Assembly: GCF_000829235.1 (NCBI RefSeq) | Contig: NZ_AP012549.1 | Span: 2,430,001 to 2,462,000 of the forward strand | Length of the DNA: 32,000 nt | Source: a cyanobacterium endosymbiont of Epithemia turgida isolate EtSB Lake Yunoko | GTDB lineage: Bacteria > Cyanobacteriota > Cyanobacteriia > Cyanobacteriales > Microcystaceae | Direction: 5' to 3' | In this document: piece after piece, positions 2,364 through 26,219 of the stretch | How the letters are laid out: every line of letters begins with the position of its first letter | Position numbering within the stretch: position 1 is the stretch's first letter | Made by a program: the position numbers and the translations under genes | Notes under the pieces: model-generated | Database searches by the model: none | What the model saw: only the letters and a program-made list of their open reading frames with translations | Told to the model about the DNA's origin: nothing

Positions 2364-3632
2364 GATAGACCCAAAATGGATAGTTTTACATTTCTATTGG
2401 TTGTATCACCTTATTCTAAATTGTAAATGACTTCTAAGCCTAGGATAATGGTCACTTCCTATGCTTCATAACTATCAATTTTTATAAAAAATATTCTACT
2501 ATAGATGGTAATCTTGTGAAGTGTGATGAAGCAGAATACGAGGTGTAAAGTTTTTTTGAATTAAACATTATAAAGTGTGGTGCTTATCAGTTTTGGGGTA
2601 TTATTGACACTATTGTTGTAATTTAGTCGGTTTTTATTGATGCAAACGTGAAAAAAGAGTTTTTATCCCTCATACCATGCCATAGCCGCTTTATAGTTAA
2701 ATTTTTAATCTAGTTTATGAGCTTTGATGAAAGATTTATCAATTATTTATTGAAATGTATGAATTATAGTTAGGTTTTATTTTCATATCTGTATTCATTT
2801 GCTTACCTTATCTTGAACTAGATTAAGTTCTAATTTACATCTCACTTATTTTTATCATCTATTTAGATGAAGTTTAGCTAAAACTGGTCATAGTAGACTT
2901 TTAATTAAAAATTGATAGATAAACTATATAAAAGCGTAGGTAATCGCTAAAGTTGAAGAGCAAAAAACTGACATAAAAGAGTAGATTATAGAAATAAAGG
3001 ATCAGTGTGGAGACTTATACATAAAAATCAAGTTTTATTTAGACTTCTACCTTTTTTTGTAACTAAGCCCAATATTCATATCATGATAATCTGTCTGAGA
3101 TGTATAACGATTTATTCAATGATCTGTAATCTAGTATTATGATTATAAATAGCTAAAAATTAACGATTTTTAGTTATATCAAGAAGGTATTAGTCAGTTG
3201 AAAGCCTAGAAATAGAGAAAGACGGTAAAATTATTTATTTAACATTCACAGTTTAGAATTATTTTTGAAATGATATAATCCAGTTTTTATACTATGCCTT
3301 GTCAAGACATAAATAATGGAGCTAAAGAGTTAATCGATGACTGATATTAAATCTGAAGAGATAACTTTCTTCAGATTTAACTTTAACCTTATTTTAGTTT
3401 TGGCGTATTTAAACTAAAATTTAATTCTCTTATTGTGATCTACTTATTTTTTAAAATATTTAGTCATTATTGAATAATTTCAAGTTAATCCGATATATGG
3501 TAGCTAATTGATTTATTCCCGACAGTACATATTGTAGGAAACCGGGCATAATGGAGCTCCTAAAGACATCAAAATGACGAAGTCGCTATCAACTGATGAG
3601 ACGAAAGAAATAGGTTAATCCTCTCCATAGAA

Positions 3633-4856
3633 TCAGATTATTGCCTCAAGTGTTGCTTCTAATGCAATGGAAATATGAGTCCAATGAGTTCCCCCTTGGC
3701 AAAAAACGATGTAGGGTTCTCGCAGAGGTCCGTCAGCAGAAAGTTCTGAGGTACTCCCATCCACAAAAGTTCCTCCAGCCATCACTAATTGACTCTCATA
3801 TCCTGGCATTGTGGCGGGAACGGGGTCTAAATAGGAACCTACTGGAGAACAACCTTGAATTGCTCGACAGAAGGCAATTAATTTTTCTGGAGAACCTAGT
3901 TGAATCGCCTGAATAACATCTTGACGGGGAACCAACGGCAACGGGTTAACAGGATATCCTAATTTATTGAAAACATAGGCAATTAAATGAGTTCCTTTTA
4001 CTGCTTCCCCTACTATTTGTGGGGCTAAAAATAATCCCTGAAATAACAACCGATTTTGATTAAAAGTTGCTCCTCCTTCTGTGCCAATTCCTGGAGCAGT
4101 TAAGCGACAAGCTGCCATTTCTACCAACTCTTTTTGTCCCGCAATATAACCTCCAGCTGTAACTAAAGTTCCCCCAGGATTTTTAATTAAAGAACCTGCT
4201 ATCAAATCTGCACCGACGGCTGTAGGCTCGATGGTTTCAATGAATTCCCCATAGCAATTATCTACAAAACAAACTGTATTGGGGTTTTGCCGTTTAATGA
4301 TAGCAATGATTTCTTTAATTTCTGCAATCGAGAGACTTTTACGCCAAGAATAGCCACATGAACGTTGAATCAAAACAAGTCGAGTATTGTTACTAATAAC
4401 AGTTTTTAAAGTTGCCCAATCAAGGGTTCCTGAATCAAGTAACGGCATTTCTCGGTAATTAATGTTAAACTCCTTCAAGGAACCTTGATAATTCCCTCGT
4501 AGACCAATAACCTCTTCTAGGGTGTCATAGGGAGAACCAGTAACTGACAACATCTCATCCCCTGGACGGAGAATACCGAATAAAGCACAGGTTATCGCAT
4601 GGGTCCCTGAGACAAATTGTACTCGGACGATAGATGTTTGAGCTCCCATAACTTTTGCAAAAACCTTATCTAGAGTTTCTCGTCCTAAGTCGTCGTGTCC
4701 ATAGCCACTAACACTCGCGAAATGGTGAACTCCAACCCGGTAAAGGCGAAAAGCACTTAAGATTTTTTTGAGATTTTGCTTGACCTTAGCGTCGATTTCC
4801 GAAAAAATTGGAAGGAGTGCTTTTTCGGCCTCTTCTAGGATCGTTTTGCTTTTCAT
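3633..4856 (-). CDS. PLP-dependent YnbB-like protein (methionine gamma-lyase / aluminum-resistance family)
   Basis: 407-aa ORF with an ATG start. Signature stretches SGYGHDDLGRETLDKVFA, SGTHAI, LRPGDE, PYDTLEEVIG, FVDNCYGEF and GSLIKNPGG are collinear with Bacillus YnbB-type proteins as I recall them. Confidence 0.8.
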   Translation of the reverse strand: MKSKTILEEAEKALLPIFSEIDAKVKQNLKKILSAFRLYRVGVHHFASVSGYGHDDLGRETLDKVFAKVMGAQTSIVRVQFVSGTHAITCALFGILRPGDEMLSVTGSPYDTLEEVIGLRGNYQGSLKEFNINYREMPLLDSGTLDWATLKTVISNNTRLVLIQRSCGYSWRKSLSIAEIKEIIAIIKRQNPNTVCFVDNCYGEFIETIEPTAVGADLIAGSLIKNPGGTLVTAGGYIAGQKELVEMAACRLTAPGIGTEGGATFNQNRLLFQGLFLAPQIVGEAVKGTHLIAYVFNKLGYPVNPLPLVPRQDVIQAIQLGSPEKLIAFCRAIQGCSPVGSYLDPVPATMPGYESQLVMAGGTFVDGSTSELSADGPLREPYIVFCQGGTHWTHISIALEATLEAII

Positions 4857-6074: not shown

Positions 6075-6248
6075 TCAAAGAGGGTGATATTTAGTATAAA
6101 TACTCTGAATAATACTAAGTAAATCTGGTGCTAACTCAGAGAAAGGGTTAGGCTTTAGTAAATCTAAAAGAGGCAATTGTTTTGTTGCTTGAGTGAAGTT
6201 TAGAATTTTTATAATATCTCCAATAATTCCTCCGATGATTATTTCCAT
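6075..6248 (-). CDS. Unannotated 57-aa ORF (MEIIIGGIIGDIIKILNFTQATKQLPLLDLLKPNPFSELAPDLLSIIQSIYTKYHPL), function unknown
   Basis: ATG at 6248 and TGA at 6075-6077, read by hand. It is just under the 60-aa track cutoff and is the only long open frame in the 1.46-kb desC-fmt spacer. I recognised no motif. Confidence 0.2.
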   Translation of the reverse strand: MEIIIGGIIGDIIKILNFTQATKQLPLLDLLKPNPFSELAPDLLSIIQSIYTKYHPL

Positions 6249-19144: not shown

Positions 19145-21400
19145 TTAGTCATCGTCCCAATCATCATTTCTAGCGAAGCTTCCACCCCCGACAGTTACTA
19201 AATCAATCTGCTGGCGATAATAATCTACACTTTTTACCTCTACTTCAACTTCATCGCCTAAACGATAAGCAATGCGATTTTTTCGTCCCACTAAACAACC
19301 ATGACGAGCGCGATATTCATACCAATCATCTTTTAAAGAACTAACATGAACTAGTCCTTCCACCAATAGGTCTTCAATTTCGACAAAGAAGCCATAAGAT
19401 TGAACTCCCGTAATCAACCCTCGAAAAACTTGGCCAGTGCGTTCTTTCATTTTTTCAGCTTTCTTCAAGCCATCGAGATCTTTTTCTGCGTCTTCAGCTA
19501 ACTTTTCACGGTCGTTAAGATGAGAAACTAAAATGTGAAATTCTTCTTCAAGACTTTCTTGTATAGCAGGGGGTAAAACATTCCAGTTAATATCAATATG
19601 ACAACGACTGCTGTGGAGATCTACCCCTGTTTTAGTCTGTTTGGTACGACGATCACGCCCTTCACTGAATAATAACTTAATCATACGTTGTACTAATAAA
19701 TCTCCATATCTTTGACCAGGAGAAACACAATGAGTATAACAGTCATGATAAGCTAAGCCGAAATGGGGAGCCGAATGACTGCTGTATTTAGCAGATTTTA
19801 GGGTATCTTTCAAAAGAAAATTTAACACCCGCACCGATGAACATTGATTAAATCCTCGAGTCAAATTGTAATAATCTTGAGCGGTAATCTCCTCTTCGGA
19901 AGACAGTTGTATATCTATTCCTAAATTATCTACCAGTTTCAGTAAATCTTCTAATTCTTCCCAATCAGGCTCAGGTTGAGCACAATAAAGGGAAGGAATT
20001 CCTAAAGCGTAAAGATGATCCGCTACCGATTTTCCTGCTAGGATTATCAACTCCATCAACAGCGAGCGCACAGGAACCTTCGATGAAGCAATAATGACTC
20101 CTAAACGTCCTTCATCTTGATAAGGTGATCGCGGCTCTAACTGTAGTTCAAACCCTCCTCGTTGCAACCGTTGTGCTTTAACTAAGGGACTAAGAGTCAA
20201 AAATAGTTGCTTAAGACATTGAGCTAATTCTTCTTGTTCGGCAGACAGCTGGTCAAAATGGGTTAATAACCCTTGAGCTTCTTGGTAGGTCAGTTGTTCA
20301 TTAACATTAATAACTGTTGGGTGAATTTCGAATTCAGTCATTTGACCATTTTTATCAAAGGTAATTAACACTGAGATGGTTAAACAATCCTTTTCTGGGA
20401 CAATACAACAACAGTCAGTTAAAGCCTTTGGCAATAAGGGAAGGACTTTGTCACCTAGATAAATCGTTGTCCCTCGTTTTTTTGCCGTTTTATCGAGGAG
20501 CGAATCAGGGGTAACATAATGGGCAACATCAGTAATATGAACACCTAATTGCCAGTACTGATCGGGAATTTGTTCAAGCGTAAAAGCTGTTTCAACAAAA
20601 GGAGGGTGGTCTCGTTGCTCATCTTCAACAAAGGTAAACGTAAACTTTTGACGTAAATCAACCCGCCTATCAATTTCAGCTCGATCAACAGTTTTTGGTA
20701 AAGCTTCCGCCAGTCGTTCCACCGCTTCGGGGAAAATTTGGGGCAAATCGTGTTTACAACAGACGATATCTGTATCAGCAGCTTCTTCGGCATCACTTCC
20801 TAAAATGCGGGTAATAGTTCCCCAGGGGGGATGTTCTCCAATCGGATAGCGTATTACCGAGACGTGAACTAAATGGTTGACTGCTTGTTCTAAACTATTC
20901 TCCTCATTCTGTTTAAGTAGAAGTTCAAATAATAAGCGATCATCGAGAGGAATCGCTTTATAATCTCCATTATCTTTTTTTACTTGAGCAAGTAAAGATG
21001 GATTTGCCCGTTCCAAAATCAGTTTAACTTCTCCTTCTGGAGAACGACGACGAGTGCCTTCTTTAATCACTTTGACAAGGACGCGGTCACTGTTCCACGC
21101 ATTGCTAAGATGGGTTTCTCGTATATAGATATCATCAGCGTCTTCTTCATCTTGAATCGCAAAACAAAAACCTTTGCTTGAACAACGTAATTTAGCTTCA
21201 ACCAGATTTTTCTCAATAGAACGGCGATATTTTCCTCTCTCCTTAACTAAAACTCCGATTTTTTCTAGAATATCTAAAATTATTTGGAGCTTTTCGATGC
21301 TTTCTTCATCTTCACACCCCAACTTTTTCTCCAGAAATTTAGCCGCAACTAATTTGTCATCTGTAAAATTGGACAAAAGTGTAGCGATTGAAAATTCCAT
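19145..21400 (-). CDS. RNase II/R family protein (RNB domain plus C-terminal S1 domain) with non-canonical catalytic motifs
   Basis: 751 aa with an ATG start. RNB landmarks are present: HITDVAHYV, RGTTIYLGDKVLPLLP, HFGLA and a C-terminal S1 fold (GLITGVQSYGFFVEI). Motif I reads TFVEDEQRDHPPFVETA and motif IV reads YTHCVSPGQRYGDLLVQR, in place of the canonical TIDxxxxxDxDDA and YxHFTSPIRRYxDLxxHR. Confidence 0.8.
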   Translation of the reverse strand: MEFSIATLLSNFTDDKLVAAKFLEKKLGCEDEESIEKLQIILDILEKIGVLVKERGKYRRSIEKNLVEAKLRCSSKGFCFAIQDEEDADDIYIRETHLSNAWNSDRVLVKVIKEGTRRRSPEGEVKLILERANPSLLAQVKKDNGDYKAIPLDDRLLFELLLKQNEENSLEQAVNHLVHVSVIRYPIGEHPPWGTITRILGSDAEEAADTDIVCCKHDLPQIFPEAVERLAEALPKTVDRAEIDRRVDLRQKFTFTFVEDEQRDHPPFVETAFTLEQIPDQYWQLGVHITDVAHYVTPDSLLDKTAKKRGTTIYLGDKVLPLLPKALTDCCCIVPEKDCLTISVLITFDKNGQMTEFEIHPTVINVNEQLTYQEAQGLLTHFDQLSAEQEELAQCLKQLFLTLSPLVKAQRLQRGGFELQLEPRSPYQDEGRLGVIIASSKVPVRSLLMELIILAGKSVADHLYALGIPSLYCAQPEPDWEELEDLLKLVDNLGIDIQLSSEEEITAQDYYNLTRGFNQCSSVRVLNFLLKDTLKSAKYSSHSAPHFGLAYHDCYTHCVSPGQRYGDLLVQRMIKLLFSEGRDRRTKQTKTGVDLHSSRCHIDINWNVLPPAIQESLEEEFHILVSHLNDREKLAEDAEKDLDGLKKAEKMKERTGQVFRGLITGVQSYGFFVEIEDLLVEGLVHVSSLKDDWYEYRARHGCLVGRKNRIAYRLGDEVEVEVKSVDYYRQQIDLVTVGGGSFARNDDWDDD

Positions 21401-22669
21401 TTACCTATTAATCTTCCTTACTAAATGTGAGTGGATCTTATTGGTGGCTGGAATCATAGAAGAGTAGTTGCTCGACAGCTCCCTAAACTGTTACGTCTTC
21501 TATACCCAACACCATGAAGAAAGAACTTTTCTTTCTTCAATGAGGAGATTGCCTAGTTAGGGAGCTTAGCTAACTAAGATTGTGGCTCAGTTAAGTGATT
21601 ACTGTCTTTATTCTGTCTTCATTCTTAAGATTTTAATCTTTAGAATGGCTAAGTTAGCTTTCCTAATTATACCTCTGTTTACAATCGAGAAGCGACCCTT
21701 GATATATCTGGATTTGCCGCATTATTTATTGCTGGAGCTCTAATCCATATTAGCAGTGAAGTTGCTCCTAGGAATCTTTGATTTTGTACTTGAAAAGTAG
21801 TGTCCTACGAGAACAGGGTGAGAGTTGTATTATCTAATGAGAAGGACTACTTTCATTGGAAGTCAACTCTGTCGAAAATGATTGTAAAGAACTAATTCGT
21901 GAACACTTCCCTTTCACAAACTTATCCGGATTTTAATTTTACCAAGGTAACGTGATACTTACGAGGTTTGTCTTTGACAAAAGTGAAAGTAAATGTTGAT
22001 TTTTATCTCATTTTAGATTCCTCTAACAAGTTGCGTAAGCCCACAGCGCAGCCTTTCATGTCAAACCATAAGACTTTACTACTTCACTAACTTTGTTCAT
22101 ATAGAAAATGTTGCCATTTATTCACCTCTATCCAGATATTTATAAAATTAGCGTTAACGACTATCCATCAACTGTAAATGTATTGTTTTTTTACTATCAG
22201 AAAAGCTTTTCTACTAGTTTTAAACTTTTTAGTGTTTTTGATTGTCTGGCAAAACCCAGGCACCTTTATCTTCAACAGCTAGGGCAATGGGGTTCGTTCT
22301 TTAATTTTCTAGCTCGTTTCTAGGTGTCGATTAGACTTCATTTTATCTTCTTTTCTAGCTTCATCGTCAAGCCTTGAGCACATTTTTATCCTGATATCGC
22401 AGGTATATTTCCCTACGGCTCGATACGTTCCGTTCGTTTATAACATAGGGCTTACCAACATTATGAGAGATAGGTTTACCCGGATATAGAAATCTCTTTT
22501 CAAGAGCAATATAAAATATTTCCACAAAAAGGAATTCTAAACTTCACGAATCCATAAAATCAAGATGTGTTTATATTTGACTTGTTTTTCTCCAATACTT
22601 TCCTACCTTTATTTACTAATAAAGTACAAATAAACTTAATAAAAATAGTAGCGAGTAGCTCAAAAAATT

Positions 22670-23397
22670 ATGTTGACTCAATTCAGAATTCTTTATCCTC
22701 AAGGCGGTGTAATCAGTGAATTAGTAGCAATTGATCACAGAAAGTATAAGTTAAAAACCATGAACCATTTTTTTCTTCTAAGGTTCCGAACATTTCGGTA
22801 GTTGATCAAACCTACTCTAAAACACCGTTACCGGAGTAACAAGTTCCAGTTGCGACTTCTGTCAAAGTCCCCTAAACGCCAGAGGCGAGCTCCTCTGAAC
22901 CATCAGCTTTTGCTGAAAAAACTACAAGCCAATCTTGAAGCCAAGTATTATATATTTCTAACATCAATGAAATCATAATTGAACCAGTGGAGAAAGTTTT
23001 CCTCAAACCCTCCTTAGTAGAAGAAAATTATACTAATCATAATGATAAATTAGCTGAACCGATGTAAGAGGTTTCCTTAAGCTCTTCTAAAATACAAGAA
23101 ACATTTATTTCAACACCAGAGATAGGCAAAATTTCAATGCCAACGACTATCATACGCCAAGAGCTTCCAGACGTATCTTCTTCGAAAGAAAAATCTCCCC
23201 TAACGAAAATTGAAGAACCTCTTGAGTTTTCGGAAATTATTGCCCGTTCTAATACAGAAATCAAGTGTTTAGGCTAGACACAAGTGCAAGGACGCGAATA
23301 TTTGATTCAAACTTATGGAAATCAATCACGTTAAGTTCTTTCTAATGAGGAGCTCATCGAATTTCTTTATTACCTCCAAAGTTTACCAACTTCTTAA
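22670..23397 (+). pseudogene. Pseudogene of a conserved cyanobacterial hypothetical protein
   Basis: It starts MLTQFRILYPQGGVISELVAIDH. After stops and frame changes comes a P/S/T-rich linker. The C-terminal module reads EEPLEFSEIIARSNTEIKCLG*TQVQGREYLIQTYGNQSR*VLSNEELIEFLYYLQSLPTS*. TAG at 23275 sits where I expect a conserved Trp, and TAA at 23332 where I expect Gln. The total length is not a multiple of 3. Confidence 0.7.
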
Positions 23398-23470
23398 CTT
23401 TTCCTGAAAATCGAGGGAAAGAATTACTTTTAAAAATAAATCAGTAACGCTTGCTAGCTAAACTAATTTA

Positions 23471-23495
23471 GGGGTTAACCGTCGCCGTTGACCCC
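23471..23495. terminator. Hairpin between the convergent pseudogene and clpP (candidate bidirectional terminator)
   Basis: ggggttaac cgtcgcc gttgacccc forms a 9-bp stem with one wobble and is G+C-rich against an AT-rich background. It starts 25 nt after the clpP stop. The flanking T-runs are weak. Confidence 0.5.
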
Positions 23496-23519
23496 TACCT
23501 TGGGTTTTACCCTAATTTC

Positions 23520-24128
23520 CTAATTAACAGTAGGAGGAGGATTGCTAGCCGAAGGACGACGGTTAATCACTTGGTCAATCAATCCATATTTTTGAGATTC
23601 TTCAGCGGACATGAAAAAGTCTCGTTCCGTATCTTGAGAGATTTGCTCAAGGGGCTTTCCTGTGTGATGTGCTAAGTGATTATTGAGGAGTTGCTTTAGA
23701 TAAAGAATCTCTCTAGCTTGAATTTCAATATCTGTGGCTTGTCCCTGGGCGCCTCCGAGAGGTTGGTGAATCATAATACGAGAGTTAGGCAAGCTCATCC
23801 TTTTTCCTTTAGCTCCTGCACTGAGAAGGAAAGCTCCCATGCTAGCAGCTAACCCAATGCAGATTGTAGAGACATCAGGACGGATTTGGTTCATAGTATC
23901 AAAAATTCCTAGTCCTGCTGACACAGACCCCCCTGGAGAGTTGATATAAAGATAAATGTCTTTTTCTGGATCTTCTGCTTCGAGGAATAATAACTGAGCA
24001 ACGATAAGGTTAGCATTTTCATCTCTGACCTCTTGTCCCAAAAAAACAATGCGTTCGCGTAACAGACGAGAGTAAATATCAAATGCGCGTTCACCACGCC
24101 CAGAAGTTTCAATAACGGTAGGAATCAT
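23520..24128 (-). CDS. clpP: ATP-dependent Clp protease proteolytic subunit
   Basis: 202 aa with an ATG start. Ser-His-Asp triad contexts are intact ([29 protein letters not shown]). The N-terminus reads [19 protein letters not shown]. Confidence 0.92.
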
Positions 24129-24742: not shown

Positions 24743-24924
24743 CCGCCCTTATTTAACTAATCTTTTAGTTAGAGCTAACATTATTAAAATTAGATAAACT
24801 ATTTTTAGGGTAATACACTTTTACTTTTGACATTGAGTGAGCGATATAGCTCCCTGATTCTACCGAGCCCAAAAAGTTTAATATTTATATAAATGTAACC
24901 GTTATTTAAAAATCACTTATTACT

Positions 24925-26219
24925 TTGACTTTGCTTAAAACCTCAGCGTTCAATGTTTCCACAATCCATATTCTTTCCAATGGGTTGACCATCATGGCTG
25001 AACAAATGCCAGTTAAAGTGATCAATTTAAACCTCTGGTTAAAAGTAATATCTACGTTGTAATTCAATTATCTTAATGGGATAGCGTATTTATTAGAATA
25101 TATGATTTTCAAAGGAATCTCTCACCTCAAAAGGAGAGAATTTGAACGATTACTTGAATAACAAGGAGCACTGACCAATGCAGCGACTCTCCAAGAGAGT
25201 ACTTATTACTACATCAATTGTGTGCTCCAAAATTTCAAAGACCTTGCCCCATTGCAATTAGATGTGATCTTTAATCCTAATATTGCTGATGAGGCATTTG
25301 AACGAGAACGGTTAGTAGTTTTAGAAGAAATCCACTGGTCGAATGATAATTCTCGTCTTGGGACTTTTTACAGGGCGATGGAGCCCTGTTTTAAGATTTT
25401 GCCCTATTGTCGTCGCGTGCTAAAACCAGCATCCACCATTAAAGGATTAATTGCCCAACAAATGCGAGACTTTCACAAAACTTAGTATCAACTTGAATTG
25501 GTAATAGCACTGACAGTAGGTAATCTTTCTGTAGAAATGTTAATTTACATTTTAGCGACGAGTTTGAGTCAAACCTGTAAGTATTCTAGAATTAAGCCCC
25601 AAAATAAGCAAAAGAGAAAAGAGGTTAAGTTTTTATTTAAAGTTTCTTTTGCTAGAATTGTGCGTCGGGAATTTGATGATTCCAGTGTACGGTAATCTCG
25701 CTTAATAATGATGTGGCAAGTTCCTGAGTTAGTTAAATTAGATAGAATCTATGCTTTGAATGTATTAGCAGTTATTTTAGGGCAGAGAAAAATCTCGCGA
25801 TTATGTCGGGATTTACGCGAAGACAAGAAGTTAGTTTCCCGTATTAACGTTAACAATATAACCCCCAAAATTTAAGACATATTTTATATATTAGCTCAAT
25901 GACTATCAGAAAATGTTCTGGAGGTGGAACGAATTATCATTGAGTAAATTACCAATATCAGGCAAATATCAGTGATTGAAACTGAATTGAATTGTGTACG
26001 AATTCAGGTAGCTAATCGGTTTGTATTTAGTAGTGAAAGTCCGAGCAATCGTACTCATCTTTATGGGGATTATTATTCTCAGTTACAGTATTTGGAATCA
26101 GCTTTGATCTATCCAATCGTATACAAGCTCTGAGTTTAGAAAATATCCAAGAAGCTGCTTTTGATTATTTGTCTTCTAAAAACTATAGGATTAAGGGAGT
26201 ACATTCTACTCATAAATAA
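24925..26219 (+). pseudogene. Pseudogene of an M16 (pitrilysin-family) zinc peptidase / processing protease
   Basis: A single frame from 24925 reads LTLLKTSAFNVSTIHILSNGLTIMAEQMPV...NGIAYLLEYMIFKG...LVVLEEI...QQMRDFHKT*YQ... There are in-frame stops at 25060, 25159, 25483, 25693, 25873, 25900 and 25945, and one frameshift near 26100. The natural TAA is at 26217-26219. The expected zinc motif HxxEH is YLLEY (TAT at 25087 and 25099). Track ORFs 25222..25485 and 25498..25695 are fragments of it. Confidence 0.85.

Follow-up and report, generated by a model that had tools for sequence, protein, structure and literature searches.

A 32,000-bp stretch of chromosomal DNA from the spheroid body of Epithemia turgida (EtSB), a cyanobacterial endosymbiont (contig NZ_AP012549.1, positions 2,430,001 to 2,462,000, here called the window), contains the remains of a gene of the slr1353 family between the genes encoding RNase R and ClpP. 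The locus is a pseudogene, a non-functional relic: homology to the family and disabling lesions were both found, the latter including six in-frame stops and a deletion of 199 bp that shifts the frame and takes out the core of the N-terminal domain. We are highly confident that this relic of an slr1353-family gene decayed in a reductively evolving genome in a definite order, with stop codons and a small in-frame deletion preceding the large deletion, and that it is now drifting neutrally.

The original prediction, made from the sequence alone, had taken the locus for a conserved cyanobacterial hypothetical gene and had named the existence of a homologous family as its own test. The family exists: a profile search found more than 1000 cyanobacterial members of the slr1353 family. 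The C-terminal 74 residues of the relic match positions 166-239 of 239 of the NCBIfam model NF058667 (slr1353 family) with an E-value of 1.3e-23; the score of 84.6 bits lies below the whole-protein cut-off of 100 bits, only a fragment being left. The best intact matches were RGRSB_1314 of the Rhopalodia gibberula spheroid body (RgSB, 310 aa) and a protein of the Epithemia clementina spheroid body (EcSB, 314 aa), and a stitched conceptual translation of the relic aligned with these proteins with E-values of ~1e-94 and 73-75% identity, which leaves no doubt about the homology. The intact orthologs have a length of 278-327 aa and all carry PF27148 (Slr1353_N) according to precomputed annotations; a local Pfam scan gave no match for the relic fragments or for the intact homologs, the copy used having no model for the slr1353 family. 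As in the family members, the motif MLxQFRxxYPxG... is found at the N-terminus and the module RLGWTxxQGRxYLxQTYGKRSRQxLSDEELLEFL at the C-terminus; unlike them, the relic is devoid of ~66 codons of the N-terminal domain and contains six stops. Since only the first 26 codons of Slr1353_N were left by the 199-bp deletion and a complete N-terminal domain is absent, the locus is the relic of a family member and cannot encode one.

Additional relatives were reached via fragment open reading frames (ORFs) from a protein search. These were the contigs L055-L058 (JGI metagenomes, Logan), which are 92% identical to the window and its closest relatives, L052 and L053 (R. gibba type) and L054 (ENA metagenome). 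The gene order RNase R, spacer, slr1353-family gene, clpP is collinear in EcSB, RgSB, the R. gibba spheroid body, L055 and the free-living relative SU2, and the syntenic region has a nucleotide identity of 85-91% to EcSB (L001), RgSB (L002) and the spheroid body of R. gibba 17Bon1 (L003). The relic is therefore the syntenic ortholog of the intact gene encoding 310-314 aa in RgSB and EcSB. Outside the spheroid bodies, a genome scan found the gene in Crocosphaera, Cyanothece, Snowella, Nostocales, Richelia, Calothrix, Prochloron, Leptolyngbya and Nodosilinea, among others, and a copy encoding 230 aa (P0083) is present in Candidatus Atelocyanobacterium thalassae (UCYN-A), which fixes N2 as endosymbiont of a haptophyte alga and has an extremely reduced genome of 1.4-1.5 Mb.

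A codon-level alignment revealed eight lesions in the EtSB copy, i.e. the 199-bp deletion, a 6-bp in-frame deletion and six in-frame stops (Table 1). Translation in frame 1 from the ATG gives MLTQFRILYPQGGVISELVAIDHRKY, followed by junk. Since 199 bp correspond to 66 codons plus 1 nt, the deletion shifts the reading from frame 1 to frame 3, in which the 3' part of the gene reads ...EFSEIIARSNTEIKCLG, stop, TQVQGREYLIQTYGNQSR, stop, VLSNEELIEFLYYLQSLPTS, stop. The middle of the gene had been thought to have lost its frame and probably a segment; what was found is one clean deletion. The remaining middle part and the C-terminal module are read in one and the same frame, no other frameshift being present in the alignment. 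The breakpoints were placed by blastn at 6082 and 6281 in L001 and L002 and at 3079 and 3279 in L055, and the microhomology at the junction amounts to 1 nt at most. The missing segment is retained in L055, L052, L003, L001 and L002, and an exact search of metagenomes for the deletion junction gave no match. In the N-terminal domain the deletion takes away strands beta2 and beta3 together with helix alpha2, and it also covers the start of the linker.

Two of the stops, at 23275 and 23332, had been described as single transitions from TGG to TAG and from CAA to TAA, and indeed they fall on Trp and Gln columns that are invariant among 12 intact homologs; all other sequences in the comparison have TGG and CAA at these codons. 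Four further stops (22837, 22873, 22936 and 23065) had been missed. Save for these two stops, the C-terminal module is readable as claimed, but it is not almost perfect: R to C, K to N, D to N and L to I replacements were found at otherwise invariant or near-invariant positions, in addition to M to I and K to Q. Likewise, the N-terminal stretch described as 25 intact residues does retain 26 codons, but it carries the replacements T to A and G to R at conserved positions, T and G being invariant in the 12 intact homologs; the G to R replacement is also found in L055. That these interruptions are sequencing or assembly errors in an intact gene has a negligible probability. Eight separate lesions would have to be explained in this way, four of them are also present in the independent metagenome contigs L055-L058, and the substitution pattern is neutral (see below). 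Furthermore, the independent Logan assembly SRR29904087 is 100% identical to the window over 7.4 kb including the locus and, therefore, the lesions are not sequencing errors.

Table 1 Coordinates of the slr1353-family relic, its lesions and the features next to it (positions in the window).
Feature	Position	Strand	Remarks
slr1353-family gene relic	22670..23397	+	EtSB (Epithemia turgida spheroid body) chromosome
5' remnant with the start codon, 26 codons left of Slr1353_N (dsRBD-like), MLTQFRILYPQGGVISELVAIDHRKY	22670..22748	+	frame 1
199-bp deletion junction (66 codons + 1 nt)	22748..22749	+	EtSB only
Rest of gene, disordered-linker region and C-terminal three-helix module	22749..23397	+	single frame (phase of 22672)
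Stop TAA from CAA (Gln), C to T	22837..22839	+	EtSB only; CAA in L055, L052, L003, L001, L002, L054
Stop TAA from CAA (Gln), C to T	22873..22875	+	codon 135; also TAA in L003, L054; CAA in L055, L052
6-bp in-frame deletion junction	22880..22881	+	common to L055
Stop TGA from TCA (Ser), C to G transversion	22936..22938	+	common to L055, old
Stop TAA from GAA (Glu), G to T transversion	23065..23067	+	common to L055, old
Stop TAG from TGG (Trp, C-terminal module), G to A	23275..23277	+	common to L055, old
Stop TAA from CAA (Gln, C-terminal module), C to T	23332..23334	+	EtSB only, recent
Original stop TAA	23395-23397	+	frame 3
44-aa hypothetical protein ETSB_1692 (BAP18404.1)	22872..23006	-	antisense ORF inside relic
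46-aa 'hypothetical protein' BAP18405.1 / WP_171816435.1	23137..23277	+	relic fragment ending at TAG; exact-sequence look-up
RNase R gene	19145-21400	-	protein exactly BAP18403.1 / WP_044107244.1 of E. turgida endosymbiont
G+C-rich hairpin, 11-pair stem, terminator-like	23469..23497	.	between relic 3' end and convergent clpP
clpP	23520-24128	-	protein exactly BAP18406.1 of E. turgida endosymbiont; convergent with relic

A comparison with sister sequences had been suggested to date the inactivation, and it did so. The L055 copy (3001-3930) has the stops at 22936, 23065 and 23275 and the 6-bp deletion in common with EtSB, which places these four lesions before the split of EtSB and L055. It has CAA at 22837, 22873 and 23332 and a private GAA to TAA change, giving four stops in total. 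Since three stops are common to L055 while the 199-bp deletion is found in EtSB only, nonsense mutations preceded the large deletion. The predicted order of point mutations first and indels later thus holds for the 199-bp deletion but not for the 6-bp deletion, which is as old as the oldest stops.

Besides EtSB, at least three other spheroid-body lineages have a dead copy of the gene, each with its own lesions, and the gene is intact in RgSB, EcSB and the spheroid body of E. pelagica. The copy of R. gibba 17Bon1 (L003, 6001-6939) contains three stops (codons 80, 135 and 211) and a 3-bp insertion, that of L052 (387-1330) a frameshifting insertion of 5 bp as well as one stop, at codon 112, and that of L054 a 9-bp deletion and two stops. 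L052 and L003 are 5.1% divergent and have no lesion in common. An identical CAA to TAA change at codon 135 (context CCCCAAAC) is present in EtSB, L003 and L054 but absent from the closer relatives L055 and L052. The TAA that EtSB and L003 have in this codon was considered as a marker of an inactivation in their common ancestor and was rejected, since L055 and L052 have CAA there; judged from the distribution of the codon, the change is recurrent and not a marker of shared ancestry. Codon 135 is either a recurrently mutating site or a mutational hotspot. Homoplasy is common in this region, with 10 of 25 informative sites in conflict.

Next, the substitution pattern was analysed. The differences between the window and L055 are distributed over the three codon positions as 21/19/18 and those between L052 and L003 as 21/12/15, compared to 38/17/53 in the intact pair RgSB-EcSB. 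Whole-gene counts of non-synonymous and synonymous changes were uninformative because the linker is fast-evolving even in intact copies and, therefore, codon-position counts restricted to the folded domains were used. In the two folded domains, the ratio of second- to third-position changes was 0:18 in the intact pair but 11:12 in the pseudogene pairs (Fisher p=0.0008). By these counts, the gene appears to be under purifying selection in RgSB and EcSB. The divergence between the window and L055 amounted to 7.8% in the relic, 7.5% in other non-coding DNA, 1.4% in the RNase R gene and 2.0% in clpP. Since the divergence of the relic equals that of other non-coding DNA, the relic has been neutral for essentially the whole time since the split of EtSB and L055.

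We also considered whether the locus could be functional via recoding, i.e. stop readthrough or reassignment, or via pieces that are translated on their own, e.g. the ORFs of 46 aa and 43 aa. In favour of this, the 46-aa ORF is predicted as a gene in the deposited annotation as well as by an automatic gene caller, and the upstream region and the start codon are conserved. Nevertheless, such a function is very improbable. Each of the stop codons TAA, TAG and TGA is found in the relic, and each also ends intact ORFs of the window. The 199-bp deletion has taken out the larger part of the folded N-terminal domain, and the codon positions evolve uniformly. In the three-helix module, the 46-aa ORF gets no further than the lost Trp that follows the first helix and, therefore, cannot fold as the domain; moreover, the fragment ORFs are not kept in L055, where the boundaries differ (56 aa). 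As read from the sequence, only short junk peptides would be possible as product of the pseudogene.

The nonsense mutations had been described as directed towards A and T. A regional bias of this kind is real: polarised substitutions on the EtSB branch in ~6 kb around the locus comprise 69 changes from G/C to A/T and 23 from A/T to G/C, a 5.0-fold difference per site, and this spectrum implies an equilibrium GC content of ~17%. The stops themselves fit the description less well, two of the three oldest being transversions (C to G and G to T). As proof of the bias the stop changes were rejected altogether, since G/C to A/T changes account for 5 of the 6 nonsense changes, which is indistinguishable from the 13 of 23 single-step routes to a stop that the genetic code leads one to expect (binomial p=0.18). 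The sister branch leading to L055 showed an A/T bias of only ~2.3-fold compared to 5-fold on the EtSB branch; this gap could be biological or could result from errors or mixed strains in the metagenome contig.

To get an idea of the ancestral protein, an AlphaFold2 model was built on the UCYN-A homolog P0083 with 87 aligned sequences, and the C-terminal half was modelled again. In the model, residues 2-75 form an N-terminal domain with the topology alpha-beta-beta-beta-alpha, which is connected via a disordered linker to a three-helix bundle at the C-terminus; the elements of the N-terminal domain are a helix at 2-9, strands at 13-23, 26-35 and 38-47 and a helix at 50-75, and the pLDDT (predicted local distance difference test) is >90 in both folded domains. 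In a Foldseek search of the PDB with the N-terminal domain the top matches were double-stranded RNA-binding domains (dsRBDs), i.e. the second dsRBD of HYL1, Loquacious, the dsRBD of RNase III and ADAR2, with probabilities of 0.9-1.0 but E-values of only 0.02-0.1 and a TM-score of at most 0.58 normalised to the 70-residue target. The dsRBDs of these proteins, in RNase III the C-terminal domain, have the same alpha-beta-beta-beta-alpha topology as the modelled domain of the slr1353 family. They differ in that the slr1353-family domain has no match to them at the level of sequence and has as its partner a three-helix bundle without significant structural match. Indeed, a sequence profile search of the PDB found nothing (best E-value 0.95, spurious), and Foldseek gave no significant match for the three-helix bundle, the best geometric one being the C-terminal three-helix bundle of lambda Red-beta (E>1). 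The model suggests that the ancestral protein probably had a role in RNA binding. No functional study of the slr1353 family was found in the literature; slr1353 was found to be named in one paper only, where an abundant RNA antisense to the gene is listed (PMC3516471).

Among the relatives of the family, P0051, P0017 and P0020, which include Nostoc proteins, contain several tandem copies of the C-terminal module. These proteins weakly match the Pfam models for GemA of phage Mu (33.7 bits for P0051), SAM-like and RHH-like domains, which hints at a small nucleic-acid-binding or protein-interaction helical motif. A link of the module to GemA (PF06252) is no more than a lead, since the 33.7 bits were obtained only with the repeat-containing P0051 and the module itself was unmatched.

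From these data we propose the following course of decay. As modelled on the homolog, the ancestral protein would have had an N-terminal domain of dsRBD-like fold and a C-terminal three-helix bundle, joined by a long disordered linker. Purifying selection would have been lost first, on the spheroid-body branch that gave rise to Epithemia sensu stricto and the R. gibba-like group. Then, before the split of EtSB and L055, the changes TCA to TGA, GAA to TAA and TGG to TAG as well as the 6-bp deletion were fixed, and after the split the EtSB line gained three CAA to TAA stops and the 199-bp frameshifting deletion, followed by neutral drift under the ~5-fold bias from G/C to A/T. The comparison suggests that loss of constraint, and not any one nonsense mutation, initiated the decay. 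This is favoured by the non-overlapping lesion sets, two of which occur in a pair of only 5% divergence, and by shared replacements at conserved residues: all four copies of the Epithemia/R. gibba branch have T to A in ELVT, V to T, and R to Q in GKRSR, and L003 and L052 additionally have L to R at an invariant position in EPLEF.

Alternatively, one founding nonsense mutation could have killed a still useful gene by drift in the ancestor of EtSB and L055, the losses in the R. gibba-type copies and L054 being unrelated accidents. This is possible but doubtful. Any of the three stops common to EtSB and L055 could have been the founder, L003 and L052 have no disabling lesion in common with EtSB save the recurrent TAA at codon 135, and the purifying selection in RgSB and EcSB together with the UCYN-A homolog implies that the gene is not generally dispensable. 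On the other hand, at least four separate lesion sets (EtSB/L055, L003, L052 and L054) would have to have arisen by chance, the wholly different lesions of L003 and L052 are explained more easily if their common ancestor was already unconstrained, and the replacements shared by the four copies, with the additional one in L003 and L052, speak against unrelated losses.

Several observations weigh against an early loss of constraint and the neutral decay of a dsRBD-like gene as proposed here. The claim that constraint was lost first rests on four sampled pseudogene lineages and, of the three shared replacements that back it, R to Q also occurs in the intact homolog P0003. The RgSB branch has many non-synonymous changes in the linker, and contrasts in the whole-gene ratio of non-synonymous to synonymous rates are weak. 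The dsRBD assignment of the modelled N-terminal domain would hold at the level of the fold only. Finally, the locus may still be transcribed to some extent, or its N-terminal 43-aa ORF (22670-22801) or the 46-aa fragment may be translated.

Going beyond loss of constraint at this locus, we tentatively put forward that slr1353 is dsRBD-like and probably RNA-binding and became specifically dispensable in the sub-clade of Epithemia sensu stricto and the R. gibba-like group, where it decayed independently at least three to four times, while it is constrained in the groups of R. gibberula and R. californica and intact in the spheroid body of E. pelagica. In that case, an RNA-related process would have been lost, or taken over by the host, specifically in this lineage, with the locus as its mark and as a natural 'knock-out series' for the function of an uncharacterised core cyanobacterial protein, and codon 135, with its identical CAA to TAA change in three lineages, would be a mutational hotspot. 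The contrast between loss in only some spheroid-body lineages and retention in UCYN-A could guide functional work. That an uncharacterised dsRBD-like protein kept by most of the cyanobacteria sampled was lost repeatedly, and only in certain lineages, is mildly interesting in its own right.

The decay of the slr1353 relic follows a known and well understood phenomenon; the lesion-by-lesion chronology adds a new detail to it, not a new phenomenon. In other bacteria that became restricted to a host recently, such as 'Nostoc azollae', Sodalis and Mycobacterium leprae, relaxed selection and AT-biased mutation lead to nonsense mutations and deletions that slowly erase genes. Unlike these, the EtSB relic decays by point mutation and small or medium deletions and not by insertion of insertion sequences (IS). 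The closest known cases are the pseudogenes of spheroid bodies described for EtSB (Nakayama et al. 2014), for RgSB (Nakayama & Inagaki 2017, PMC5638926) and by Abresch et al. (2024, PMC11131595, and 2026 preprint). Genome and process are the same as here: genes of a reduced, AT-rich (33-35% GC) and IS-free genome with conserved synteny are broken by frameshifts and in-frame stops, the set of genes kept varies idiosyncratically between lineages, and decay is further on in EtSB than in RgSB. For EtSB, 225 pseudogenes are annotated and pseudogenisation is further advanced than in RgSB (PMC5638926); the intergenic regions of spheroid bodies are full of degraded gene fragments and active mobile elements are absent (bioRxiv 10.64898/2026.03.19.712447). 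In the window, ORFs of at least 100 aa cover only 48% of the sequence and the GC content is ~26-43% per kb, which fits the published low coding density of EtSB and its 225 pseudogenes. The slr1353 locus is thus one more relic in a genome known for ~225 pseudogenes and matters little beyond housekeeping, but it provides a cleanly ordered example of decay, with stops and a small in-frame deletion, a later 199-bp deletion and a ~5-fold AT bias, without any part played by mobile elements.

What distinguishes this locus from the described spheroid-body pseudogenes is that it was deposited as two tiny coding sequences for 'hypothetical proteins', BAP18404.1 and BAP18405.1. Both are probably annotation artefacts and should give way to a pseudogene feature. 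No ORF >75 aa is present in the ORF list between the RNase R gene and clpP, and Rfam and tRNA searches of the window gave no match.

The relic is separated from the RNase R gene by an ORF-less spacer of 1.27 kb (21401-22669), which is kept in all spheroid-body genomes examined; the spacer between RNase R and the slr1353-family gene is ~600 bp long in the free-living relative SU2. Its divergence between the window and L055 is 5.1% and, therefore, below the 7.5-7.8% of the relic and other non-coding DNA. A six-frame NCBIfam scan of the spacer gave no match and neither did Rfam. The spacer could harbour a conserved RNA, either a leader or a regulatory one, or a relic too old to be recognised. At the other end, the G+C-rich hairpin between the relic and clpP is kept in RgSB (L002), with 97% identity over 38 bp and its self-complementarity retained, and is probably a bidirectional terminator still needed for clpP. 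Beyond clpP, the N-terminus of an M16-family peptidase was found as a remnant at 24919-25227 (plus strand), probably reaching towards 26200, with 64% identity to a 103-aa fragment ORF that is annotated as PF00675 in the R. gibba-type contig L052. Its ORFs are short and broken, and it is likely to be another pseudogene.

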